Origin: an uncultured virus (IMG/VR IMGVR_UViG_3300001041_000010)
Lineage: Duplodnaviria; Heunggongvirae; Uroviricota; Caudoviricetes
DNA: 55,365 bases
IMG/VR virus record: IMGVR_UViG_3300001041_000010
Direction: 5' to 3' (one strand)
The first letter of the stretch is position 1; every line of letters begins with the position of its first letter. Under the pieces are notes generated by a model that saw only the letters and a program-made list of their open reading frames with translations, was not told where the DNA came from and did no database searches. The position numbers and the translations under genes were made by a program. This document shows, piece by piece, positions 6,896-38,408 of this stretch.

Positions 6896-7924
6896 TTATG
6901 CAATGTTATTTAGTTTCTCAATCATCATGGGAAGTAGCTCATCAATGGCTATTCGCTTAATTCCGGAAATACCGGTATTTGGAGCGTAAACCATAGGAAT
7001 TTTATGGATCTTAACAAGCTCCTTAACCAAGTTAGATGTATGATGACTAATTGATGTCCAAACGTGAACTAATCCGTTAACTCGGCGCAAAACATTGATG
7101 ATTTCATCTTTATCAGCTTTAGGGTCGATATACTCAAACTCCGCTCCTAAATCCGTTAAGACATCCCTGTAATTGGCTTCTTCTCCGTAACCTCCCACGA
7201 TGCCAACGGTGTACCCTTTTAATTGGCTTGTCGTAATATGAGGTAGTTTTGTTTGCGAGGTTTTCCTTTTGCTTACTTTGATCTGATTACTTAATAGTCC
7301 ATCGTTTGGATAAACTTTAATAATCTTACCTGGAGTATTCTTATTGTCAGTATAATAAGCCACACTGACAACAGATCCGACATTGACACTAAATTTCTCT
7401 ACGTCATGTTTACTTAAAAGTACTTCATCTCCATCAACGATTGCCGTATAGCCTACATTGTTTTGTTCAATAATACCTAATGCTTCAACACGGGTACACG
7501 GCAGGGCATTTTTCTCTACGATCGTAAAGACATAGCGAATTGTAAATCCATCAGAAAGCATACCTGCACGTTCTGCTTTAATTAAATCACCATTTTCAGC
7601 ATGAATTGCAGTAGTAATACTCTCGGGGATAAAAATAGAATTACCATCGATAACTAGTGAGCCGCCCGTTAATTTACGTTCAAATCGACCAATATTAGAG
7701 ATTTCTTCGATAGACTCTTCTATTGGAATAGACGGTTTATTACAGATTGTTTCAGGTTTAAAGGATCTCAGTAGATTTTCAATATCCATGAATTTCTCAA
7801 TTTTCTCAAAGTAAACGCTACGTTGATTCGAAAGACGCGCATCTTCTAGTGCTGATATCTGCATAAGCCGAAAGATATCAGCACTGTCTTGAAGCGTTTG
7901 GTGTTGCTGCATATTTAAGTTCAT
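6896..7924 (-). CDS. protein with C-terminal DUF2325-like domain
   Basis: C-terminal VGIVGG..NYRD..VWTSISHH..IPMVY pattern. Confidence 0.6.
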   Translation of the reverse strand: MNLNMQQHQTLQDSADIFRLMQISALEDARLSNQRSVYFEKIEKFMDIENLLRSFKPETICNKPSIPIEESIEEISNIGRFERKLTGGSLVIDGNSIFIPESITTAIHAENGDLIKAERAGMLSDGFTIRYVFTIVEKNALPCTRVEALGIIEQNNVGYTAIVDGDEVLLSKHDVEKFSVNVGSVVSVAYYTDNKNTPGKIIKVYPNDGLLSNQIKVSKRKTSQTKLPHITTSQLKGYTVGIVGGYGEEANYRDVLTDLGAEFEYIDPKADKDEIINVLRRVNGLVHVWTSISHHTSNLVKELVKIHKIPMVYAPNTGISGIKRIAIDELLPMMIEKLNNIA

Positions 7925-12257: not shown

Positions 12258-14060
12258 TTACACCTGACTAAAGATTGAACTCGCTACTTCGTCTTCGACA
12301 TCAGCTAATTTAGAAACCGTAACGATATCATCACTAAAGAGTTTTAATGTACGGTCACTTGCTCCATAGCCACCAGAACCGATCAAGACAGATTTCACTC
12401 TGAACTCTTTCTCTTTTTTGATCTTTAAAAACTCTTCAAGAAAACCTTTTTCTAAGTGAGAATCACCATCTGTGATAAAGACAATGTCCGCTAATTTAAA
12501 CTTATTCATCTTCAAGATCTTTAAGGCTTCTTTTAATGGTGGTTCAAAACTAGTGCCGCCGCCTGGAAATGTCTCAGCGATATCTAAGACAATATTAGGT
12601 TTTAAGCTGTCCTTAGGAACAATATAGACCCACTTAGGATCTACATAACTTTCAAATAGAATACAAGCGTAATCACGTCGTTGTTTTTGTGCGATTTCAA
12701 GCAATGCTAATGCTACCGCTTTAGACCATTTTTCCGCTTGACCACTCATTGAGCCTGAGACATCAACACAACAGATAATCGGACCCTTGCCCTTTTTCTG
12801 AGTATTTTCAAGCTCGTATTGAAGAAGTTCCTTTTGATTATATTTGCGATAGAAATCACGTTTAACAACTGGACCCGCTGCAAGTCTAAGTTTTTCACTA
12901 GGTAATATAGATTCAAGTTTATTACCTGTCGTGACGGACTTAATATTCGTAGCGCCATCCTTGGTTTTCTTCTTTTGATCATCCATAGCAAGCTCACGGA
13001 AACGACCAATCAGTTTCGAGAACTCTTTAAGTTTTGACGATCCACGGATGCGTTCGAGTGCGGCTTTCTTCTCTTCAATGGGTATGCGCTGCGCTATATC
13101 ACCCTTTTCCATCCCCCATGCATTTAAGAAATCGCGAACCTCATCAATGTCTTTATCAGCCTTATCGGCGGCCTTAGCCATGACTTGTTGAAGTTCTGTT
13201 GCGGCACCATTGTCAAGTTGTTCATCAATTTGCTGTTCCTTGGCATCGATGTCATCTTGAATCTCTTGCATTTGTTGTTGTAATTTAGCCATAGCTTCGG
13301 CTTCTTCATCGGTAACGCCTTGACCGTTACTACCACCACCAGCACCAGGGTTACCACCTTGACCACCGGGATCTCCTTGACCATTGCCGGATTGCTTCTT
13401 TTTCATATCGTCAAGTTTCTTTTGAAGATCTTGTTTCTTCTTTTCTTGTTCGATAAGTCCGTTAATGGCCTTTAAAATATCCGGATCCATTGGCGGCTTG
13501 CTTTGGCCTCCTCCGCCTCCAGAACCAGAACCTCCTCCGCTACCGCCAGGTTCTCCGTCTTCACCTTCGCCGCCTTCTCCTTCACTTTCTTCTCGCTTAC
13601 GATTATAATCTTCTTTAATAGCGATGACACGGCGAGAAGCTTCTTGTTGCATAACTTCAGTGGCGATTGCTGAACCTAGGATATCAAGTCTGGTATTTTG
13701 TCTTAAATTAGCATACTCAGGCGTGTCCATAAGCTCTGTTATAAGCTTGTGGTTTAACTTATGACTGGCTTTCATTTCGCCTTGTTCGGCGACTTTAGGC
13801 GTATACTTAAACAACGCTCCGAATAAGTCTTGACTTAGTGTATCGAAAGTTTTTAAGTGTTCATGACCAGCTCGTAAGTTATCTGCCATGGCAGGAGATT
13901 GACTGATAAGATCTTGATATATATCAATATCAGCCCAATCTACATTAACGGCATGATCTGTCTTGACAATGGGTTTGAATTCCTGAGCGGTTTCACTAAC
14001 TCCGAAGATAGAAGCAACTGACGGCCCTGCGACCGTCGGTTCTGCTATTTTTATAGTCAA
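12258..14060 (-). CDS. vWA-domain protein (ViaA/CoxE-like partner of a MoxR ATPase)
   Basis: MIDAS motif CVDVSGSM..GGTSF..DIVFITDG; Gly-rich linker. Confidence 0.9.
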   Translation of the reverse strand: MTIKIAEPTVAGPSVASIFGVSETAQEFKPIVKTDHAVNVDWADIDIYQDLISQSPAMADNLRAGHEHLKTFDTLSQDLFGALFKYTPKVAEQGEMKASHKLNHKLITELMDTPEYANLRQNTRLDILGSAIATEVMQQEASRRVIAIKEDYNRKREESEGEGGEGEDGEPGGSGGGSGSGGGGGQSKPPMDPDILKAINGLIEQEKKKQDLQKKLDDMKKKQSGNGQGDPGGQGGNPGAGGGSNGQGVTDEEAEAMAKLQQQMQEIQDDIDAKEQQIDEQLDNGAATELQQVMAKAADKADKDIDEVRDFLNAWGMEKGDIAQRIPIEEKKAALERIRGSSKLKEFSKLIGRFRELAMDDQKKKTKDGATNIKSVTTGNKLESILPSEKLRLAAGPVVKRDFYRKYNQKELLQYELENTQKKGKGPIICCVDVSGSMSGQAEKWSKAVALALLEIAQKQRRDYACILFESYVDPKWVYIVPKDSLKPNIVLDIAETFPGGGTSFEPPLKEALKILKMNKFKLADIVFITDGDSHLEKGFLEEFLKIKKEKEFRVKSVLIGSGGYGASDRTLKLFSDDIVTVSKLADVEDEVASSIFSQV

Positions 14061-14106
14061 GTTACATCATCTCCTCGTCTTCATATTGTTCTAACCAATC
14101 ATTATC

Positions 14107-15402
14107 TCAGAACGGCATAGCCTCTTCGTCATCGGTTGTGGTTCTTTTACGAGCGGCTGCTTTGGGAATTTGTAAAACTTCCTGAATCATCTCTTCATTC
14201 ATTTTGATGATATCGTCACGTTTCTTCTCTAGATTCGTCACGTCACGTCCGGCAGTTTGAGCATCTTTAATGACTCGTTCAATCTTCTTGACGATTTGTT
14301 CATACTTAACACGAGCCTCTACAGCCGCTCCGGCTTTCTCTGTCTTATTATCGATACGTTCCGTACGGTTCTTGATTTCTATAGCCGTATCATAAAGCTC
14401 TTTAACTTTGTCATCATAAGGATTGATTAGCTTCATAACATAGCTTTCAATGATCTTAATGTGTTCTTCTTTTTCCCACAAGACATGAATCAGAGACACA
14501 AAATCATCAAAATCAACACTTGTTCGGCCATTGATTAAGGCGTTCCCCTGAAGAACCTTAAAGCAGGCAACATACCGTCTATCAGAGAAGTAAATGCCTT
14601 CTTTGTTAAGTTCACGACCAAGCTTCTCGAAGGTCTTATAGATATCGTCCGGAATAAGAACTTCTTCCAGTATTTCGTGAATGGCTTCGAGTTCTTCGAG
14701 TGTCACTAAAGTGTGTTTAAAATGAGTCTTAATGGCGGGATTACGGCGCTCAACCGATTGTTTAGCCATCTTAACTTTGTTTGCCGGTTCTTTAACGTAC
14801 TGAGCATTATGCCTAAACATGAGTCTATCGTAAAGCGCTGCTAAGCTTTCATCTTCTGGTGTTTCATTCGAGGCACAAAACATAGAGTATAGCGGAACAT
14901 CATTAGGCACACCGTCATTATAAAAGATACGTTCATTGATGATCGGAAGTAAGATGTTCAGAGTTGGTTCATTCGATTTCCAGATTTCATCCAAGAACAC
15001 GATATGAGCCTCAGGCAAGCGGCCTTTAGATTTACGTTCGAACTTGTCCTTCTCCATACCTTTTAAACTATAAGGACCCAGTATATCCGCTGGATCTGAC
15101 GTTTTGTTTAACAACCATTCAAAGTAATTTGCTTGATCGATATGTCCCGTGAAAGCACGAGTTAATTCAGATTTTGCTGTTCCCGGAGGCCCCATGATAA
15201 ACAGATGATTCTTAGTAACGACCGCTCGGATTATATCTTGTACTATTTCAATTCTTTCCACGAATTGATCGTTGAGTTCATCAGCAATTGCCTTCAAATT
15301 AGCGATACCCTGTGCAGCCAAAATCTTTACGTCAACTGTTTGTTTCGGTGCGCTTACGACCAATACATCCTCATCAGCACTGTCCATTAATGCCATTGCC
15401 AT
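14107..15402 (-). CDS. MoxR/RavA-family AAA+ ATPase
   Basis: GPPGTAKS, ILGPYSL, VFLDEIWK, ASNE, ALYDRL, SDRR. Confidence 0.92.
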   Translation of the reverse strand: MAMALMDSADEDVLVVSAPKQTVDVKILAAQGIANLKAIADELNDQFVERIEIVQDIIRAVVTKNHLFIMGPPGTAKSELTRAFTGHIDQANYFEWLLNKTSDPADILGPYSLKGMEKDKFERKSKGRLPEAHIVFLDEIWKSNEPTLNILLPIINERIFYNDGVPNDVPLYSMFCASNETPEDESLAALYDRLMFRHNAQYVKEPANKVKMAKQSVERRNPAIKTHFKHTLVTLEELEAIHEILEEVLIPDDIYKTFEKLGRELNKEGIYFSDRRYVACFKVLQGNALINGRTSVDFDDFVSLIHVLWEKEEHIKIIESYVMKLINPYDDKVKELYDTAIEIKNRTERIDNKTEKAGAAVEARVKYEQIVKKIERVIKDAQTAGRDVTNLEKKRDDIIKMNEEMIQEVLQIPKAAARKRTTTDDEEAMPF

Positions 15403-15585
15403 AATTAACAATTCCTCCTTAAATTCTTCTTCTTAGTATTACAAATTGTAACGCGAATTATACTCTCCTTTCTCCTATTATATCACATTTTGTTACATAA
15501 ATTAAGTGTTTCAATCCACACATCTAACGAGATGTGACAAAGAGTGAAATCCTCCACCTCCCGAGAGGGAGAGGTGGAGGATGAA

Positions 15586-29711: not shown

Positions 29712-30000
29712 TCTTTTTCTCCTCTTCGTTAAAAAAGTAACATGCAATTCCAGCAATAAGGAGCATAGCGATATATGGAATCATCTTAATATCGCCATAG
29801 TTAATAGTACAACCTAATAAACTGCCGAGAAATAAGAATAATAATACACTCCACCGAGTCCACCGAATAAACTTAAGGCTCCTATTAATCTCAGCAATAC
29901 GATGTTGATGATCTAAATTAGGCTCATGAGATATCTCTGGCTGTTTATAACAACGACGTCGATAAGCTTTAGAGTCTTCGATGACTAATATCTTTGCCAT
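29698..30000 (-). CDS. two-TM membrane protein
   Basis: AGGAGG RBS before MAKILV; two hydrophobic helices. Confidence 0.65.
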   Translation of the reverse strand: MAKILVIEDSKAYRRRCYKQPEISHEPNLDHQHRIAEINRSLKFIRWTRWSVLLFLFLGSLLGCTINYGDIKMIPYIAMLLIAGIACYFFNEEEKKNEPN

Positions 30001-30020
30001 AACAGCCTCCTTGAATATAG

Positions 30021-30133
30021 TGAGGGTTTGATGGTATCGAACCATCAAGGTTAACCAAACGGCATAAACTTCCCCGCTCTCGGCAGACTTGAACTGCGTA
30101 GACCTAACGTATCCTGGCACCTGCCAACCCTCA
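30021..30133 (-). ncRNA. tRNA-like RNA with two T-arm-like hairpins and a GGAAGUUUAUG loop
   Basis: UGAGGGUU/AACCCUCA closing stem; GCAG-UUCAAGU-CUGC and GAUGG-UUCGAUA-CCAUC hairpins. Confidence 0.7.
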
Positions 30134-30141
30134 TGTAGTTA

Positions 30142-30360
30142 TTATAGAGCTTTTTCTGGCGCTTTAAGCCAAACTTCTTGAACATTACCAGAGGCTCCAC
30201 AGGCAAGACAAGTAATTGAATAATTATCAGTTTTACTATTCTTACCGTCTTTTTGTACTAGTCCGTGATATTTTGTTTTAGGACTCGCACAAAAAGGACA
30301 ATAAAGTATCGTTGCCTTAAGTGTATTTTTAGCAAAGATCTTAAGTAGATTTCGCATCAT
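30142..30360 (-). CDS. small zinc-ribbon protein
   Basis: CPFC..CLAC. Confidence 0.6.
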   Translation of the reverse strand: MMRNLLKIFAKNTLKATILYCPFCASPKTKYHGLVQKDGKNSKTDNYSITCLACGASGNVQEVWLKAPEKAL

Positions 30361-30365
30361 ACAAA

Positions 30366-30665
30366 TCACTCCTCGTCTACGTATCTCTTACGAAGTGATA
30401 TAGGTTTATTCCAAACTGAATCTGGCTCATCATCATCGTCATCTTGTTCAAAGCTTAAGACGAATGTAATACCAGCTTTGAGTAAGAAAATACCGATTAA
30501 GACACCTGGAACTAATAAGAATAGAAGATGCTTGACCTTAATAACATTCTTGAATAAATCAAGAATGTTATCAGGATTTAAAGCATCTTCCACCATCATC
30601 CAAATGCCTGCAACAATAGTTATGATCAGTAGTATGATGTTAATAATTATACCGGCTGTAATCAT
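30366..30665 (-). CDS. two-TM membrane protein
   Basis: Two hydrophobic helices, acidic tail. Confidence 0.65.
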   Translation of the reverse strand: MITAGIIINIILLIITIVAGIWMMVEDALNPDNILDLFKNVIKVKHLLFLLVPGVLIGIFLLKAGITFVLSFEQDDDDDEPDSVWNKPISLRKRYVDEE

Positions 30666-30687
30666 TGATAACCTCCTTGGATTTAAT

Positions 30688-30855
30688 TGGGGTGATCGAC
30701 GAGAATTGAACTCGCAACTCTGCCACAGGTCTTCTTAAAGTACGTATTGCTTTCACAACCGTCATGTCAAGCCATGTTAGGTAGCGATCCTATCACGTTC
30801 CTCCTGACTATCAGCTTTCTGCAAGACAGCTTCTACCGATTGAAATACGATCACC
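30688..30855 (-). ncRNA. tRNA-like RNA (His-type G-1:C73 acceptor, CCA) with ~100-nt insert replacing the anticodon loop
   Basis: GGUGAUCG/CGAUCACC-CCA; D arm; CUGUC/GGCAG stem; T arm GCGAG-UUCAAUU-CUCGU. Confidence 0.75.
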
Positions 30856-30862
30856 ATGTTAA

Positions 30863-31117
30863 TTAACGAATTAGTGAATCTTCAACGCGTTTTCCTTCGC
30901 AATGAAACGCCAGAACAATCTTTTGTAGTTCCGGGCGTTTTTCTGGATGTTTTTCCATAATTTCAGCAACTAATTTAGGAATGTCGTTTTCCTTAGAGAA
31001 TTCCATGAGCGCATTTTGAAACTCTTTAATAGTACTCATAGTTTGCCGGTTTACTTCGGCAATTGCTACTCCCTTATTGATAATATCATCAAGTTCAGCC
31101 ATTAGATTACGATCCAT
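30863..31117 (-). CDS. hypothetical protein
   Basis: GAGGAGG RBS. Confidence 0.65.
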   Translation of the reverse strand: MDRNLMAELDDIINKGVAIAEVNRQTMSTIKEFQNALMEFSKENDIPKLVAEIMEKHPEKRPELQKIVLAFHCEGKRVEDSLIR

Positions 31118-31450
31118 GTTTATTCCTCCTCTCTATTCATTTTTCGGATTACTTCCTCTTTACTAAGAAAGCGACCCTTCTTCATATCATAGACACTAGG
31201 ATAATCGCCTATGAGTTCTCTCACAAATTCAGGAAATATTTCGGCTTCAGCTTGCTCGTCTTTAATCATGATGTTCCAACTTTACATACGTTGAACACGT
31301 AATGTACTCAAAATAACCTGGGTCACCAGGCATAAGTATATGATTAGGTACAATTTCAAGAACGTTAGCACGACAGAAGCCACTGTAATTAAAATCACAC
31401 TTAACGATATCGCATTTAACGATCAATAAAATCATCTCCTTTAATTACGT

Positions 31451-31611
31451 CGGCAAGGGAAAGATTCGAACTTTCGAACATCACTCGTAGATAGTTTAGA
31501 GCTCAGTACCGGTTGCTGGGAAATAGTTTTGACGATCATAAACTTCCTCCGTCTAGACCTTTAACTATCGTATCCCTTGACTAGCGCCTTCAACCGCTCG
31601 GCCACCTCGCC
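31451..31611 (-). ncRNA. Ser-type tRNA body with large insert carrying the GGAAGUUUAUG loop
   Basis: GGCGAGGUGGCCGAGCGGUUGAAGGCG...GAAAG-UUCGAAU-CUUUC-CCUUGCC-G; no normal anticodon arm. Confidence 0.75.
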
Positions 31612-31626
31612 ATGAGAATAATAAGT

Positions 31627-31869
31627 TTAAGCTTTATGATACCTTTTGCCGTCCCTAGTTGCAATAGCTCTTCCAAGAGCTAACTCGTGACCTATCTTTT
31701 TATTGAAGACATCTTCAAAACAACATTTGGCAATCCCCTTAGAGCCGTCTGGCAAAATGACGACGGTTCTATTACCAGAGTAGATCACCTGAGCAAGAAC
31801 TGGAACATTGACTTCGACAAACTGAACCTCTGCTTCTTCAATACAATTAGCACCCGACGTGTTTCTCAT
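31627..31869 (-). CDS. small phage protein (GIAKC..EDVFNKKIG..LALGRA)
   Basis: GAGGAGG RBS; motif common in phage ORFs. Confidence 0.7.
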   Translation of the reverse strand: MRNTSGANCIEEAEVQFVEVNVPVLAQVIYSGNRTVVILPDGSKGIAKCCFEDVFNKKIGHELALGRAIATRDGKRYHKA

Positions 31870-31894
31870 AAATCCTTCCTCCTCTTAATTAATA

Positions 31895-32014
31895 TGGCAC
31901 CGAGGACGGGATTTGAACCCGCCTATTACGTTTACCGCTCCCCATAGAAGATTACATCTCTTTACAGCGGAGAGGCGCGCCGGATACGCTCCCTAACCAC
32001 TTGGGTACCTCGGT
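31895..32014 (-). ncRNA. tRNA-like RNA with extended anticodon arm
   Basis: ACCGAGG/CCUCGGU-G-CCA; T arm GCGGG-UUCAAAU-CCCGU; ~55-nt insert. Confidence 0.75.
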
Positions 32015-32142
32015 GATAATTGCTTGGAACGACTCACCATATCATATCGCTCCCGTCCCCTTCGCCACTTATCTCTACGTCTATTTTAGGGGCTTTCCAT
32101 CTAAAATTAATAGTTAAGATAAATCTTAACTAAAGATAACAA

Positions 32143-32216
32143 TGGCAGCCGTCTGAGAGAATTGAACTCTCCCTTCGCTATGAAGAGTAGCGCGTGCTTC
32201 CTTACACTATCCGGCC
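32143..32216 (-). tRNA. atypical tRNA, anticodon loop CUCUUCA (CUU, nominal Lys), mismatched acceptor stem
   Basis: CGCUA/UAGCG anticodon stem, GAGAG-UUCAAUU-CUCUC T arm, CCA end; C at position 37. Confidence 0.55.
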
Positions 32217-32220
32217 ATGA

Positions 32221-32294
32221 TGGATTCTGTTGCGAGAATCGAACTCGCCCTTCACTGCCTGGTAGCAGGGCGTGCGTCCGTACACCAATAGAAT
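32221..32294 (-). ncRNA. tRNA-like RNA with distorted anticodon arm
   Basis: GCGAG-UUCGAUU-CUCGC T arm, CCA end; CUGC-UACCAG-GCAG in place of a 7-nt loop. Confidence 0.6.
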
Positions 32295-32316
32295 CATGTA
32301 ATACGTTGAAATAATT

Positions 32317-32350
32317 TACATAGCGTCTCTCTTGAGAGACGCTATGTAAC
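32317..32350. terminator. long inverted repeat TTACATAGCGTCTC-TCTT-GAGAGACGCTATGTAA
   Basis: Near-perfect palindrome just after the coiled-coil gene. Confidence 0.55.
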
Positions 32351-32360
32351 GATTAAATCT

Positions 32361-33380
32361 TTACTTCTGAGTTTTATCTTTCACTAAGGCCTCAAGACTA
32401 TTAACCATTCGCGAATTGGCTTGAGATTCGATAGCTGCCGTAGCGGTTTCCTGAATTTTGCTATATGCAGTTTTCAAATCTTCATTTAGTCTCGTTAATT
32501 CGTCATTCGCTTTATTGAGCTGAGCCTCTAGCATGGCAACCTTATTTTCAAGTATCGTCTTTTCAGAAGTTGTCTTGGATTCGATTGCTCTCTTTTCAAA
32601 TCCGAAACTTGTTCCAGCTTTCTTTTCGCCTTCAGCTTCTCCAGCTTTTCTGGCAGCGTCAACTAATTGCGGAATTTCTTCCACTTTAGCCTTAAGGTCG
32701 TCAATCGTTTCTTCCCTTGTTGTTACCAGTTCAAGTCTTGTTTTGACTTCACTTTCAAGTTCCGATAACTGTTTTTCACGTACCTTTTTCTCATCTTCCC
32801 AATCGTTATCGTCAAGTTGCTTCTTCCTTGCGAAGTCGTACGTGTATTCTTCTTGATCCCTGGCACGTTTCCGTTTAACTTCTTCGTCTTGCAGATAGGT
32901 TTCATTCAAATGAGCAGCTTTTTCAGCCTTCAAATCAGCTTTTAATTGATCAAGTTCAGCCTGCATTCTTGCTTTGTCTTCATCGAAAGCAGCCTTAAAC
33001 TTATCTTTGGTTTCCCTATTTGCATTGACCAACGCAGTTAAGGCGAACGCTTCTTTTTCAATGTCAAACAGCTCTTTCAGTTCGGATTCTTTGAGGGCGA
33101 TTGCTTCTTGTAAATCATTGAATGTTTTAATTTCTTCCGTAAAACTATTCGCTAAATTACCAAGTATGCTGGCGACACTCTTCTGCAATTTTGCAATTTG
33201 GTCTTCAACATTAAGACCAACAGTTTCAGTGGCTTTAGTCAAAGTCTCTCCGGCTTTTTTCATGGACATTTCTTTGGCTGGATCAACTATGATACCTTCA
33301 CTAGCTTTTAACAATTCCAAGGCCTCGGAATAAGCAGATAAGATTTCCTTCTTCGTGTTGTTTTCGGTTACGATTTTCAT
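32361..33380 (-). CDS. long coiled-coil protein
   Basis: 339 aa, heptad-rich; motifs NTKKEILSAY and RDQEEYTYDF. Confidence 0.8.
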   Translation of the reverse strand: MKIVTENNTKKEILSAYSEALELLKASEGIIVDPAKEMSMKKAGETLTKATETVGLNVEDQIAKLQKSVASILGNLANSFTEEIKTFNDLQEAIALKESELKELFDIEKEAFALTALVNANRETKDKFKAAFDEDKARMQAELDQLKADLKAEKAAHLNETYLQDEEVKRKRARDQEEYTYDFARKKQLDDNDWEDEKKVREKQLSELESEVKTRLELVTTREETIDDLKAKVEEIPQLVDAARKAGEAEGEKKAGTSFGFEKRAIESKTTSEKTILENKVAMLEAQLNKANDELTRLNEDLKTAYSKIQETATAAIESQANSRMVNSLEALVKDKTQK

Positions 33381-33576
33381 TTCTTTTCCTCCTCATATTC
33401 TTTACAACTAGATAATATTTAATAAGCCATCAGGCTATATACAAAACGCCTCGAAGAGACGCTATGTAAGCAAATTAAGATCATATAGGCTTGAGTTATT
33501 TAAGCTCAACTTAGCTCATTGTCCTGCAATTACTACAGGCTACAGAGTACCTATATAATCAAAACTAACAAATGAT

Positions 33577-33660
33577 CGCGGAAGTGCAGAATTGAACTGC
33601 AAGAGTTTAATACTGATGTCTGACGCATCTAACATATTTCTCTGTCACCAAGACCTTCCA
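33577..33660 (-). ncRNA. degenerate tRNA-like RNA
   Basis: GGAAG/CUUCC stem; UGCAG-UUCAAUU-CUGCA T arm; enlarged central arm. Confidence 0.5.
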
Positions 33661-33666
33661 GATGAT

Positions 33667-33748
33667 TGGGCAGGGCAAAGGGATTCGAACCCCTGATAGC
33701 GATCATAAACTTCCTTCGCTCGTTTTAAACCACTAAACTATACCCCGC
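33667..33748 (-). ncRNA. tRNA-like RNA (G-1:C73, CCA) with 13-nt anticodon loop AGGAAGUUUAUGA
   Basis: AGCGA/UCGCU stem; AGGGG-UUCGAAU-CCCUU T arm. Confidence 0.8.
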
Positions 33749-33761
33749 ATGAGAATAATAT

Positions 33762-33957
33762 TGTAGCGGATAGAAGGGCTCGAACCCCCAACCGTATATA
33801 AGCTACTTATATGCTTTCGTCCGGACTAATCACATACTCCTCACTTATACAGTTAATCTCCAAAGAATTACTTTATTCATGTGATCAACATGGTTTATAT
33901 AACTCCGTAATTAACCGCTATCTCTCGATAGCCGCTCTACCATTGAGCTATATCCGC
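33762..33957 (-). ncRNA. tRNA-like RNA with ~130-nt multi-hairpin insert
   Basis: GCGGAUA/UAUCCGC; canonical D arm GCUC-AAUGGUA-GAGC; T arm; GAGA tetraloop instead of an anticodon loop. Confidence 0.75.
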
Positions 33958-33966
33958 AAAATTAGC

Positions 33967-34423
33967 TGGCGGACCCGACGGGGAGCCGCCCCCCGTGTCC
34001 AGAATGTCTACCCTTTGTCCCTGTTACTACTGAGAAATCTGAGTGTCTAACCTACTGGAATTGCAACCAGCGCTTATTAAACCCTCGCCTCCACCACCTG
34101 CATTATACGATGCAGGAAACATGCGTTAATAGACGGGACTCGAACCCGCACGGGACTTTCGTCTTCCACATTTGCATGCAGCCATAGTTAATTCTTTGAC
34201 CTCGCTTTATTTCAAGCGTGCGTATGCCAACTTCGCCACTATTAACTACCCAGTCTTCGACCTTCAGGAGTCGTTGGGTACTCTCCGTTTTAGGGCTGTA
34301 GTTCCTAATTAATTAAAATTAGGCAGCGTTTTTCATAGGTGTAGCATTTGCTTTAATGTCGTCTTTCCGACTGTCATCTCAGAGGACATACTCTATTCAC
34401 CCTGTCGAAACTAACTCGGGCCC
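33967..34423 (-). ncRNA. ssrA: tmRNA with tag peptide ANATPMKNAA* (34319-34351) and a nested tRNA-like element
   Basis: 5' GGGCCCG..UUUCGACAGGG; 3' CUGGACACGGG..CCCGUCGGGUCCGCCA with G3:U70; tag ends in AA. Confidence 0.85.
34124..34246 (-). ncRNA. Leu-type tRNA-like element nested within the tmRNA
   Basis: GUUAAUAG/CUAUUAAC stem; D arm UGGCGAAGUUGGCAUACGCAC; T arm GCGGG-UUCGAGU-CCCGU. Confidence 0.75.
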
Positions 34424-34536
34424 ATAATTCAGTGAGTTTCCTCACTAAGGAGAATACCAGATAAGGAGTGGGGTAATGACTCCTTAAACCATAAAGGGTA
34501 ATGGCTCTGATATTCTATTTAGTGAGGATATCATCA

Positions 34537-34755
34537 CTAAGATCGTCTAAACAATCTAGCAAACCATGATAACCTCTTAGGTTTAATAATTGGCACTGGA
34601 TAGACCTCTCTAGGAGAAGTTGCTATAAAATGACCACATCGTAAGCAACTCCATCCCGTTGGATGAAATACTTTACTATCGATAAGGATCGTGATGTTAT
34701 TTAGTGTCGCTTGGGTAAAAGAAGAGCATTCATTTGGACATTTCTCATTTACCAT
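34537..34755 (-). CDS. small zinc-ribbon protein
   Basis: CPNEC..CLRC. Confidence 0.55.
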   Translation of the reverse strand: MVNEKCPNECSSFTQATLNNITILIDSKVFHPTGWSCLRCGHFIATSPREVYPVPIIKPKRLSWFARLFRRS

Positions 34756-35150
34756 TTTTCAACATAAGTCTCGAATGTAAGTTCTATGAGATCATCATCA
34801 TGAGCCTTACAACGAAAGGCATACGTACGAGAACCGTATTCATCCTGTGATTCATACGATAAATCACCATATGTTCGATGATAATAGACAGCGCCCTTAC
34901 GGAACCAGCCGTTCTTTTTCTTGGCAGTGTTTATAATCAGCTCGATGGCTAAATCATTATTCTCTTCGATAGCGTTGATAATAGCTAGAGCTTCTGCACA
35001 CTGAGGGTGATAATTAGCTAATGGTAATTCTATATCACCTCCAGGATGATCGCTGTACTCTTCAGCAGCCTCAGCAATATGACTCTTAATTTCTTTAAAG
35101 TCAATTTCAACTTTGAAACGTTTGTTATCAACAATACGTTCGATTAACAC
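34749..35150 (-). CDS. hypothetical protein
   Basis: GTG start after AGGAGGTGG. Confidence 0.65.
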   Translation of the reverse strand: MLIERIVDNKRFKVEIDFKEIKSHIAEAAEEYSDHPGGDIELPLANYHPQCAEALAIINAIEENNDLAIELIINTAKKKNGWFRKGAVYYHRTYGDLSYESQDEYGSRTYAFRCKAHDDDLIELTFETYVEKW

Positions 35151-35299
35151 AAATCCACCTCCTAAGTTATTTAAGTTTTCTCCACCCTTCCCGAAAGGGA
35201 AGAAGGGTGGAGAAACCACTTGTGATCCATTTAAAGGCTAGTTGTAATCGCCACAATTAGCTATAAAGACGAACGCTAGTAGGCCAGCGTCTTGCACAA

Positions 35300-35606
35300 T
35301 AGGCGGCGTTTCAACCCGCTTCCCGCCGCAAGGGTTTCATATAAGCATCTTCCATCCACTTTAGCTCCATGTGGATCTTATTCGCATGCCCGTCGCGCCG
35401 GTAATTGTGCGCCGCGTGGCCTGGTGTTTCAACTCACTCTAACACCTGTGAGTTTATCTTCGGCTATTTTCAACCCTATTTCATCAGCCCTTCGGGTTAT
35501 GCGGTATGGTCTTGGCGTTTTCAACTACTCTCAACGCCTACGTAGTTCTCACATCATCTTCATTAAGCGTCTCAGCCCGTCTCACGCCTATATCAAATCG
35601 GGCTTA
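35300..35606 (-). ncRNA. tandem array of ~6 predicted H-type pseudoknots
   Basis: Each 32-41-nt unit has two interleaved stems, e.g. AACUCAC/GUGAGUU plus GGUGUU/AACACC. Confidence 0.7.
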
Positions 35607-36043
35607 TCCATAATAAATAACGATAATAGTACTACTCTAAATCTATAGGGCCGTAAGCTTCCTCCCATATAAATTATACCAACTGTAGTAATATTCTTAT
35701 AACATGTACTTAGCGTTCCCAGCTAAGCACCCTGGATCTAGAAATACTCCTAGATCACTACTATTAACTGGAATTTCATGATGTATTTAGCCTTGCAATA
35801 GCCTTATACTAGAATTTCCAGAAACGACCGCCTCCACATTACTAATCAAACTTAAGTCGAGGTACGTCCATTCCAGACACCCTTAAGCATGATAGCGATC
35901 GACATCCACTCCTGTACCGGAGGAGCTACATGTTACGTTTAGTGATTTATTACTTCACTAACCTCAACGCCAAGAATCATAAATATCAGATCGTCATCCG
36001 ATAGATCAATCCAGTGGCGCTGAAGTTAACAAAGTATCTATTA

Positions 36044-36070
36044 CTATTATATAACATTTTGTAACATAAA
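36044..36070 (-). promoter_or_regulatory. phage promoter (TGTTACAAAATGTTATATAAT) upstream of a non-coding RNA block
   Basis: Same motif as the other phage promoters; followed by ~850 nt without a credible ORF. Confidence 0.7.
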
Positions 36071-36154
36071 TACATTGTTTTGTTGGCGGCCCAATGACTA
36101 AGGGCCGCCAAATACTTACTAAACAGTTGCACTCTAAATTTATAAAATAGCAAT

Positions 36155-36223
36155 GATGCATTGCTGGACTCGAACCAGCACTCAACGCGTCAACGTCAGC
36201 TCTGCCAATTAAGCTATCTGCAT
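36155..36223 (-). ncRNA. pseudo-tRNA with shortened anticodon arm
   Basis: D arm GCUU-AAUUGGCA-GAGC; T arm GCUGG-UUCGAGU-CCAGC. Confidence 0.6.
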
Positions 36224-36229
36224 TTGAAT

Positions 36230-36300
36230 CATACAATACAAGGAGTCGAACCTTGTGCTCACCCTTACGGGGCAGCTCTACGCGTTAAGCTAATTGCATG
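36230..36300 (-). ncRNA. pseudo-tRNA with GUAA tetraloop instead of an anticodon loop
   Basis: AUGCAAU/AUUGUAU; CCC-GUAA-GGG; ACAAGG-UUCGACU-CCUUGU. Confidence 0.65.
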
Positions 36301-36354
36301 AAGTCTTATTTAAAACATAACACGTTACCTCCTGTAAGAATTTATTTAACCACA

Positions 36355-36647
36355 TGGAGTCCAGAGACTTACACTCTGGAATGTTTGGAGACTATTGCAA
36401 ATTCGTCTCACTGGTGTGTTTTAGATCGAAGGTCATAACTCTAAGTTCTGGTTCCGTGGCACACCACCCATTCACGGACCAAGATCGGAATACCTTTACG
36501 TGTATAGCTAACACACAACCGATACCTTTAACGTCTTTTAGTTATTATTAATTATCACAAGACATAAACTTCCTCTTGTGTGCTTAATCCCGACCATAGC
36601 CTATCATAAAGCCGATAATTAAATATAACTCGTATTCCGTCACTCCA
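36355..36647 (-). ncRNA. ~290-nt structured RNA with tRNA-like terminus and a GGAAGUUUAUG loop
   Basis: UGGAGU/ACUCCA closing stem; CCAGAG-UGUAAGU-CUCUGG T-like arm; CACAAGA-GGAAGUUUAUG-UCUUGUG hairpin. Confidence 0.6.
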
Positions 36648-36648
36648 T

Positions 36649-37228
36649 ATAACTTTACCATCGCTTTACTCTACTGTACCGCTACCCTACACCACTTCGC
36701 CTTGCCGTTACTCTACTCTACCATACCGTTACATTACCCCTCGTTGCGTTACCTTTGCACTACCCTGCTGTACCGTTGCACTACTTTTCCTTACCACAAC
36801 CGTACTTTACCACGCCTTGACGCGACTATACCCTACGCTACTTTACCATGACTGAACACTACCGCGCCTCGCCTTACCATAACATTACAGTACCATACCC
36901 TACTTTACCTTGACGCAACAGTATTCTACTTTACCTTTACACACACAGTACAATAATTCACAACACCATACCATGACGGAACACCACTAGGCTAGGCCTT
37001 ACCACTGCAATACCCTGCTTAACTTCACTCCACCGCAACTTTACCCTACCCTACTTCACCGCTACGCTACCTTACTTCGCCATTACGTTACCATGCTGTA
37101 CCATTACAGGACTGGGCTAGACTCTACCATAACATCACTTCGCTTTGCCTTACCGTGACTGAACCTAACCCTACAATCACGAGACAACACCGAGCCTCAC
37201 TTTGCCATAACCCCGCTCAACTATACCA
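36649..37228 (-). repeat. non-coding array of NGY-NN pentamers (candidate guide-RNA array)
   Basis: Near-strict 5-nt period (GGT/AGT/GGC/TGT/CGT plus a variable dinucleotide), with one extra base every 4-6 pentamers; starts right after the RAMP gene stop codon. Confidence 0.85.
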
Positions 37229-37864
37229 TTACTTTGCTGTGGCTAATACTGTTTGAGAAATCGACTCAATAACAGTAAAGCTGTTAACTTTAAACTGTCC
37301 AAAACTACCATTCCGGAATTGGCCTAAACCCTTAAGTTCTCCGAAGTTAAGGATCTCTTTAATCGTATCACTCGTAATTTCCTTATGGTTTACCAGTGTG
37401 ATATCGAAAGATAATTTTGCACCAGCATGAACAACATCACTCTTGGCTAGTGTTACTCGTGGACCCTGCGCGGTCATAGCCCGTAATGGTCGCTCGAAAA
37501 CTGAATCACATTTCATGATATTAACGCCATTGCGGACAAATCGAATCTTGCGAGGCGTCACAAAGATGAAGTTTTCAAGCTTAGATTTAAGATTCTTAAT
37601 CTTAAGTTGATCCTTTAGATTGTTACCGGCATCACGCAGAAAACCAAGTATCATGTAATTATAGATAAATAAGCCATCTTCGTCTTCCATAAACGTTGTC
37701 CATCCGGAAGTATCGTCTTCAACGATATTCTGAGCTTCTTCGGCAGCTACTTCGGGTATCACTTTAGTGGCTATATATTTTGTATAAACGTCACGATTCT
37801 TTGGAACAGTTCCTAGTTGATCTTCAAGCAGCTCAATTTCTACTTTCATTACGGTCTTTTCCAA
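37229..37864 (-). CDS. stand-alone RAMP / Cas7(Csm3)-like RNA-binding protein
   Basis: N-terminal strand KVEIELLEDQLG, internal ILGFLRDA, C-terminal Gly-rich loop FGELKGLGQFRNGSFGQF; no other cas genes in the window. Confidence 0.8.
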   Translation of the reverse strand: MEKTVMKVEIELLEDQLGTVPKNRDVYTKYIATKVIPEVAAEEAQNIVEDDTSGWTTFMEDEDGLFIYNYMILGFLRDAGNNLKDQLKIKNLKSKLENFIFVTPRKIRFVRNGVNIMKCDSVFERPLRAMTAQGPRVTLAKSDVVHAGAKLSFDITLVNHKEITSDTIKEILNFGELKGLGQFRNGSFGQFKVNSFTVIESISQTVLATAK

Positions 37865-38054: not shown

Positions 38055-38408
38055 TTAACAGTTACCGCCGGGGCCTGTGGCCTTCTGTAATTCTCGTTCG
38101 GTTTTCTCCCATGCTTCGATATCGATAAGTTCCGTAACGTCATACATTTGCTCATTGAGCCATACGTAGCAGGTATGACACTTAGTGCAAATCATAACCT
38201 GGAGTGAATCCTTAGAGACATTCTTTGTTTTATCCGCTCTCATAAAGGGAACAAGAACTTCAACGTAGCCGCCGTGTCTAAAATGAACATTGTCACATTG
38301 ACATTGAAAGAAAAATAAGTCACCAGCCTCGCTGATTTTCTTCGGTGTTACCTTTTTACTGAATTCATCAGCACCCATCGAGATCATAACTGCATCTTTA
38401 TCTGGCAT
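38055..38408 (-). CDS. zinc-binding hypothetical protein
   Basis: CQC..HFRHGGY..CTKC. Confidence 0.7.
   Translation of the reverse strand: MPDKDAVMISMGADEFSKKVTPKKISEAGDLFFFQCQCDNVHFRHGGYVEVLVPFMRADKTKNVSKDSLQVMICTKCHTCYVWLNEQMYDVTELIDIEAWEKTERELQKATGPGGNC

Follow-up and report, generated by a model that had tools for sequence, protein, structure and literature searches.

An identical 11-nucleotide motif on four hairpins

The stretch of DNA analysed here, referred to as the window, comprises 55,365 nucleotides of an uncultured virus of the Caudoviricetes (bases 62001-117365 of the 117,365-bp IMG/VR record IMGVR_UViG_3300001041_000010) and carries on its minus strand an island of tRNA-shaped genes, within and next to which a single 11-nt motif recurs. 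An exact motif scan of the window finds four copies of this motif, GGAAGTTTATG, all on the minus strand (30063-30073, 31537-31547, 33704-33714, and 36563-36573), which bears out the claim of the initial annotation that an identical loop is displayed at these four places; the entire 117,365-bp record contains no further exact copy. We tentatively regard the motif as a recognition loop that imitates a translation start and that is presented mainly on tRNA-shaped bodies. The hairpins that display it are as follows:

30057..30079, minus strand: site 1 hairpin, with the 6-bp stem GAGCGG/CCGUUU, including two G.U pairs, and the 11-nt loop GGAAGUUUAUG at 30063-30073
31531..31553, minus strand: site 2 hairpin, with the stem GACGG/UCGUC and A.A flanks that yield a 13-nt loop
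33698..33720, minus strand: site 3 hairpin, with the anticodon stem AGCGA/UCGCU and the 13-nt loop A-GGAAGUUUAUG-A
36556..36580, minus strand: site 4 hairpin, free-standing, with the 7-bp stem CACAAGA/UCUUGUG and an 11-nt loop

These stems are the ones initially proposed, with one more G.U pair added to AGCGG/CCGUU at site 1. The proposed loop length of 11 nt stands at sites 1 and 4, but not at sites 2 and 3, where an A.A mismatch opens the loop to 13 nt. With up to one mismatch allowed, the motif is matched six times against an expectation of 1.22, a count that none of 100 shuffles reaches. When hairpin-embedded copies with up to three mismatches are collected, four have none and the other 13 all have three; as not one has a single or two mismatches, the motif appears to be an all-or-none element devoid of degenerate copies.

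In a motif-anchored alignment of six flanking pairs across the four sites, 22 of the 24 stem cells hold standard pairs, the two remaining cells being the A.A pairs that flank the motif at sites 2 and 3. Each of the six stem pairs differs among the sites on its 5′ as well as its 3′ side, yet the 11 letters of the loop are the same in every copy. The pairing and covariation scores of this alignment are equalled by none of 500 shuffles, and shifting the 3′ partner by one to three columns lowers the pairing to 33-46%. The signature of a recognised element that had been claimed for these hairpins, namely an invariant loop on covarying stems, is thus upheld by both the alignment and the shuffle tests. 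Taken together, the invariance of the loop, the changes on both sides of the stems, and the lack of partly diverged copies fit selection acting on the loop sequence itself.

Partition-function folding in the full sequence contexts recovers the hairpins of sites 1 and 4 with pair probabilities of 0.83-0.98 (0.83-0.92 at site 1 and 0.96-0.98 at site 4) and leaves the motif unpaired with a probability of 0.87-0.89. As isolated 31-nt hairpins, the four are unremarkable in stability (z from -0.45 to -1.83, the latter value being that of site 4).

A relative of the motif, GGAGGAAGCUUACGG, occurs at 35651-35680 (minus strand) with two changes, one of which turns the AUG into ACG. By eye it lies about 7 nt past a TGnTATAAT-like -10 element (35678-35673), which places it at a likely transcript 5′ end. 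As for the motif itself, a reading of its internal TATGAT as a sigma-70 promoter element was rejected, with site 3 alone being listed and promoter-like sites being fewer overall than in shuffles.

Three of the copies lie in tRNA-shaped bodies

In three of the four cases the motif is found where a tRNA-shaped RNA has its anticodon arm, which supports a role of the motif as a presented element. The bodies in question are:

30021..30133, minus strand: body A, carrying site 1 at the anticodon-arm position, with a four-way junction as its minimum-energy fold
31449..31612, minus strand: body C, carrying site 2, recognised by folding and by ARAGORN in intron mode only, with a 79-nt 'intron'
33667..33747, minus strand: body G, carrying site 3, with a match to the Rfam tRNA family RF00005 at 33670-33747

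Body A combines an 8-bp acceptor stem and a T arm (GAUGG-UUCGAUA-CCAUC; the T-arm-like hairpin lies at 30046) with a long arm that replaces the D arm, and encodes no CCA. In body C, a D arm of class-II-like form (GGCCGAGCGGUUGAAGGC) accompanies a T arm and an acceptor stem of 7 bp, and about 80-100 nt are inserted at the anticodon arm; the site 2 hairpin forms the tip of this long arm (GGGA/UCCC, AUAGUU/AACUAU). Neither of these two bodies matches the Rfam tRNA model, even at E values up to 5. Body G is a canonical cloverleaf with encoded CCA, which scores 40.4 bits against RF00005 (gathering score 29) and covers model positions 1-71. It departs from the model in having 13 nt where a 7-nt anticodon loop is expected and on that count falls outside the decoding tRNAs; standard ARAGORN does not call it, and it is called only with a 6-nt 'intron'. 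The initial annotation had noted a tRNA body around site 3 alone: its placement of that loop at the anticodon position holds, but the restriction to site 3 does not, since sites 1 and 2 likewise lie in tRNA-shaped bodies.

The three bodies belong to a larger set of tRNA-shaped elements on the same strand, which we delineated as follows:

30021..36302, minus strand: island of about 12 tRNA-shaped genes with small open reading frames (ORFs) between them (ARAGORN, T-loop pattern, and folding)
30688-30854, minus strand: element B, tRNA-shaped with an insert
31895-32014, minus strand: element D, tRNA-shaped with an insert
32143-32216, minus strand: tRNA-Lys(CUU), a normal standard ARAGORN call
32221-32293, minus strand: tRNA-shaped element with an 8-nt loop
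about 33575-33660, minus strand: element F, tRNA-shaped
33765-33957, minus strand: element H, with a GAGA tetraloop at the anticodon position
34123-34246, minus strand: element I, tRNA-shaped with an insert
36155-36223, minus strand: element J1, with a UGAC tetraloop at the anticodon position
36228-36302, minus strand: element J2, with a GUAA tetraloop at the anticodon position

On this strand, 13 T-arm-like hairpins are found between 30046 and 36255, 12 of them in tRNA-shaped elements and one (31300) inside an ORF; similarly, the window has 15 matches to GTTCRANTC, and 11 of them lie on the stretch and strand of the island. Several elements encode CCA. Across the siblings the inserts at the anticodon position measure 26-116 nt (26-93 nt in elements B, D, and I). 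In its standard mode ARAGORN accepts three of the island genes: Lys(CUU), which is the sole normal one, and two others whose loops measure 8 nt and 6 nt. Its intron mode returns nine calls with 'introns' of 6 to 116 nt. Accordingly, tRNA-Lys(CUU) alone among the roughly 12 elements looks competent for decoding. As the siblings cap the anticodon position with tetraloops or inserts, the bodies are best seen as scaffolds rather than decoders; the island has kept the tRNA bodies and lost their decoding function.

Beyond tRNA, no Rfam family was matched above threshold in searches at the gathering score and at E up to 5. A sub-threshold match to the permuted tmRNA (21.8 bits, threshold 47) lies at 34319-34461 (minus strand), just upstream of element I; ARAGORN predicts no tmRNA. 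The island also encodes a 339-aa coiled-coil protein (32361-33380), whose gene is flanked by terminator-like hairpins at 33445-33463 and 32316-32349 (minus strand) with the common arm ACAUAGCGUCUC. Four tandem hairpins (35290-35600, minus strand) have different 6-bp stems and purine-rich loops of 12-15 nt that all end in GUUGAA(A), one of them starting with GGAAG, and thus represent a second family of conserved loops on variable stems. This tract gives a weak, sub-threshold match to the Rfam family CRISPR-DR8 on the opposite strand (19.1 bits against a threshold of 39).

Resemblance to a translation start

When the purine-rich 5′ strand is included, every site takes the form of a Shine-Dalgarno (SD) sequence, the 6-nt spacer AAGUUU, and an AUG at the 3′ end of the loop. 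The SD portion is GGGG at site 1, GGAGG at site 2, AAGG at site 3, and GAGG at site 4, and in duplex with the anti-SD core the four sites reach -7.3, -9.5, -6.2, and -5.9 kcal/mol. By the same measure, 149 ORF starts of the phage have a median of -8.8, and random ATGs one of -1.5, attaining -6 or lower in only 5.6% of cases. A spacing of 6 nt is within the range of the real genes of the phage (4-12, mode 7), and a real 74-codon ORF elsewhere in the record begins with GGAGGAAGTAAATG. Among the remarks of the initial annotation, the one that the loop looks like a short SD plus AUG is therefore the best supported, with SD-like energies at all four sites.

The frames that follow the four AUGs comprise 4, 5, 25, and 32 codons, are mutually unrelated, and overlap the tRNA-like 3′ halves; that of site 4 is a 5-codon ORF followed by three in-frame TAA codons. 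As these ORFs are short and unrelated, the start-like sequence is likely to be kept for something other than a product. Moreover, the invariance of the 6-nt spacer exceeds what ribosome binding needs and hence points to a more specific reader.

A VIPR system next to the island

Site 4 is located just downstream of a pentamer array and its associated gene:

37229-37849, minus strand: vipr gene, coding for a Cas7-like protein (predicted structure and Foldseek), just upstream of the array
36641-37228, minus strand: staggered pentamer guide array, C-poor with a strong 5-nt periodicity, directly downstream of vipr

The locus 36641-37849 is a VIPR system of the kind described in a 2026 preprint (10.64898/2026.04.26.720920), in which Vipr is accompanied by vrRNAs built of GGY/NN repeats, the arrays are staggered, and the 3′ tail is an invariable structured element. 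Profile scans (Pfam, PHROGs, PADLOC, and NCBIfam) give no match for the ORF at 37229-37849, which belongs to a large phage family (297 matches); proteins 70-76% identical to its product are encoded on contigs of up to 71.6 kb. The predicted structure of its product (AF2) is confident (pLDDT 90.6), and the top Foldseek matches are all Cas7-family RAMPs, i.e., Csm3, type VII Cas7, Cmr4, and Cas7-11 (E 2e-8, TM ~0.55). The array comprises 18 chains of 4-6 units of the form (G/A)G(U/C)NN, 88 units altogether, with chain starts spaced 21, 26, or 31 nt apart; relative to the published GGY/NN repeats, the first fixed position is relaxed to R. Among the 73 homologue loci, an array stretch adjoins the gene in 43; it lies downstream in 29, upstream in 13, and on both sides in one. 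A zinc-ribbon ORF at 38055-38408 could be an accessory gene of the system. T-arm hairpins were considered as a general punctuation of VIPR arrays and rejected, being found with 2 of 43 arrays. Four of the 73 loci (L193, L194, L210, and L226) have a tRNA-Met(CAU) gene at a distance of 0.3-3.4 kb downstream of vipr, and in L198 a T-arm-like hairpin comes right after the array.

A candidate start-mimicking recognition loop

The DNA itself shows the copies, the hairpins and the covariation of their stems, the tRNA-like bodies, and the SD/AUG character of the sites. On this sequence basis we propose, as a possibility to which we give somewhat less than an even chance, that GGAAGUUUAUG is an operator-like, start-mimicking loop that a single trans-acting factor recognises and that the phage carries on tRNA scaffolds as well as on one free hairpin. 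The bodies retain the acceptor, T, and mostly the D arms; hence, if the island is expressed, host tRNA-processing enzymes may excise them from long transcripts, and the resulting RNAs may persist. The anticodon position, no longer decoding, would then present the loop to the factor. Such a partner, if it exists, would most likely be an RNA-binding protein that normally reads the start region (for example, a repressor of translation, a regulator that binds SD sequences, or an RNase), and the four copies might serve as its decoys or loading sites. A more specific and doubtful extension is that they are tRNA-scaffolded decoys of a jumbo phage, in which the fixed imitation of a start captures a host factor that binds start regions; candidates are regulators of translation, RNases or toxins involved in defence, and the initiator tRNA/30S complex.

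Several observations weigh against the recognition-loop proposal. The copies are few, being four, one per RNA, spread over 6.5 kb, and their exact identity could reflect recent copying rather than selection. In full-context folds of sites 2 and 3, GUUU(A) pairs with an upstream AGAC or AAAC and ousts the hairpin; by nearest-neighbour folding, forcing the hairpin costs 6.8 kcal/mol at site 2 and 3.2 at site 3. The alternative at site 2 is a 9-bp pairing of GGUCUAGAC with GUUUA-U-GAUC, in which GGAGGAA is placed in a 7-nt loop and most of the motif is paired, as is GUUUAUGAUC. At site 3 the alternative pairs AAAC with GUUU, although here the cloverleaf is the more credible fold because the Rfam tRNA model aligns the body from end to end. 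Profile scans of the neighbouring proteins (Pfam, PHROGs, PADLOC, and NCBIfam) identify no RNA-binding family besides the Cas7-like Vipr, and no partner.

Likewise, DNA, pattern, and neighbour-protein searches detect no homologous RNA in phage records, IMG/VR, metagenome contigs, or GTDB genomes. Comparison of 29900-36900 with 50,697 phage records by megablast gives no match, and blastn then gives only one 108-nt coding match. In viral contigs, AGGAAGTTTATGATCG is present at 20 loci, none in a hairpin and most clearly coding, and the motif followed by a T loop at no locus. Loci around homologues of neighbouring genes show neither a hairpin-borne exact motif nor a tRNA-like island; those examined comprise 80 metagenome and 71 genome loci for the 339-aa neighbour, one locus for a 1179-aa neighbour, and 73 loci for Vipr. 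Among the loci of the 339-aa neighbour, exact copies are limited to the same phage (contig L026) and one stemless copy in L168. Full-text literature searches retrieved nothing on common non-anticodon loops on phage tRNA look-alikes.

Among the alternatives, it is rather unlikely that the sites are working ribosome-binding sites, at which the 30S subunit binds or starts on the mini-ORFs. The SD-like energies at four of four sites and a spacing within the real-gene range would be expected of such sites, and at site 2 the 32-codon frame stops 5 nt ahead of the SD of the next gene, while two mutually exclusive folds expose either the SD or the AUG. Their purpose might be that of a stabiliser SD, a concept from the Bacillus literature, acting against a 5′ exonuclease or Rho, or the unfolding of the tRNA-like 3′ half so as to couple translation and processing. 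However, ribosome binding has no need of an invariant spacer, the SD lies partly inside the stem, the ORFs are unrelated, and site 4 has no gene downstream. Equally, we consider it unlikely that the motif has no present function, having been copied recently between hairpins of decaying tRNA pseudogenes (by gene conversion or anticodon-arm duplication), or that it acts at the DNA level on an extruded hairpin as a protein or nicking site. Exact identity in the absence of graded divergence, the abundance of aberrant tRNAs in the island, and the 16 nt common to sites 2 and 3, whose stems appear related to that of site 1, are compatible with copying. Yet the stem of site 4 is unrelated to the others, so that simple duplication fails to explain it; the flanks beyond 11-16 nt offer no homology that could drive conversion; pairing is retained through changes on both sides; and every copy is on the transcribed strand inside an RNA gene.

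RNA-RNA pairing was also suggested initially, with the loop as the seed for an antisense target, and is improbable. An AUG flanked by U and A is complementary to CAU anticodon loops, and the apical, exposed loop could in principle kiss tRNAs with a CAU anticodon (UUAUGA with UCAUAA, positions 33-38 of the initiator, Met, and Ile2 tRNAs), or else pair with a C-rich small RNA or the 16S tail. Against this, only 5 nt (UUAUG) are common to the four sites, the next base being C or U at sites 1 and 4, and the constancy of all 11 nt is left unexplained. No target emerged either: complements within the island never exceed 7 nt, and the best one in the whole window is a single 10/11 match inside an ORF (6996-7006), at chance level. 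Nor did a search of bacterial genomes favour the motif or its complement: the 11-mer is matched in 120 of 151 genomes of Bacilli (the class of Thermoactinomyces), at 0-5 occurrences per genome and strand, within or below the 0-13 of a reversed control. As it is no commoner than the control, the loop neither copies nor complements a conserved multicopy host RNA in Bacilli.

Titration of a CsrA/RsmA homologue by the GGA of the loop is very unlikely, even though CsrA sites are themselves SD mimics and RGGAAG, in view of the CsrA consensus, stands at the 5′ side of the apical loop. Each RNA has a single GGA hairpin, where known sponges have many; the loops are long (11-13 nt); the UUUAUG half is also invariant, which goes beyond what CsrA binding needs; no Csr or Rsm family of Rfam is matched at the gathering score or at E up to 5; and no CsrA gene occurs among the phage ORFs scanned (117 kb). 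The earlier suggestion of a sponge or decoy for one RNA-binding protein or toxin is not borne out in this form: no partner was found, the single copy per RNA differs from Csr/Rsm sponges, and no family is matched.

Similarly slight is the chance that the hairpin is a Vipr-binding 3′ tail, with the tRNA-scaffold copies regulating or nucleating Vipr. Site 4 does follow the last pentamer unit of the array by about 60-85 nt, and published vrRNAs end in an invariable structured 3′ tail, but these tails begin directly after the last repeat (10.64898/2026.04.26.720920). We rate this reading low because a tract with 5-nt periodicity is absent from the vicinity of sites 1-3 (periodicity in the window is confined to 36641-37211) and related arrays lack the loop: it is missing from the 130 nt after the array in 17 related loci whose arrays lie downstream, and none of the 73 homologue loci holds an exact copy of the motif, which is also missing inside the array.

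Most improbable is that the extra nucleotides constitute an intron or a processing signal whose excision yields working tRNAs, e.g., Ile(UAU) from site 3 or a CUA suppressor from site 2. The intron mode of ARAGORN does give six 'intron-containing' tRNAs in the island, including Ile(UAU) once AGGAAG is removed. By inspection, though, neither the 13-nt loop of site 3 nor the free hairpin of site 4 can form a bulge-helix-bulge. Group I introns would require much longer inserts than these, and the intron families of Rfam yield no match. No splicing endonuclease, RtcB, or RNA ligase is found among the ORFs scanned (117 kb of the 229.6-kb contig), and site 4 is outside any tRNA. Further, as the genes read well under code 11, no suppressor is needed.

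Comparison with known RNA elements

Small structured RNAs embedded in a phage tRNA cluster have a parallel in the species 1 and 2 RNAs of T4 (rnaC and rnaD) and other non-decoding look-alikes, which are presumably freed by tRNA-processing enzymes and have no decoding role. By description rather than by sequence, the present case differs in comprising about a dozen look-alikes, three of which share one exact 11-nt loop at the anticodon position. The MS2 coat-protein operator and the T4 RegA and gp43 operators are hairpins that contain an SD and an AUG and are read by one sequence-specific protein. At all four sites here the SD and the start codon likewise lie within the hairpin; in contrast to the operators, no real gene follows any copy, and copies occur in tRNA-shaped RNAs. 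The CsrB and RsmZ sponges, which titrate their regulator, resemble the motif in exposing an SD-mimicking GGA in hairpin loops, and differ from it in that here there is one motif per RNA, in a longer loop with an invariant 3′ half, and no Rfam match. In engineered 'tRNA scaffold' RNAs and in tmRNA, a tRNA body that gives processing and stability has its anticodon arm swapped for a functional insert; the arrangement seen here is natural and multi-copy. The 3′ tails of VIPR vrRNAs (10.64898/2026.04.26.720920) are invariable structured elements next to a pentamer array, just as site 4 follows such an array, whereas three of the four copies are far from pentamer tracts and the arrays of relatives have no such loop.

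Phage tRNA clusters are commonly interpreted as codon supplements; a more recent view is that they replace tRNAs cleaved by the defences of the host. A large cluster that is almost wholly non-decoding, with several members displaying the same non-anticodon loop, would mean that tRNA bodies are reused as carriers of RNA functions, in what is so far a single phage lineage. If tRNA-scaffolded decoys are indeed involved, they would represent a new RNA-based strategy of takeover or counter-defence. Should a partner be found, it and the loop would make up a recognition pair (RNA-protein or RNA-RNA) that is both small and portable, and RNA display on tRNA scaffolds would have a precedent in nature.

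The phage and its other genes

The same phage is represented by the 229.6-kb contig L026 of a metagenome collection, and the sequencing runs containing this DNA are groundwater and sediment metagenomes, with no RNA run among those listed. The DNA runs differ at five single bases; as none of these falls in a motif copy, they yield no covariation. In gene content this is a large tailed phage of Bacillota type. The 339-aa protein of the island shares 37% identity with gp268 of Bacillus phage G, and its homologues include proteins at 51-54% identity; homologous genes occur widely, in phages as well as prophages from many phyla. Elsewhere in the window (12258-15411, minus strand), a MoxR-type AAA ATPase with a bpMoxR domain is encoded beside a 600-aa vWA-domain protein, constituting a MoxR-vWA pair in a phage.

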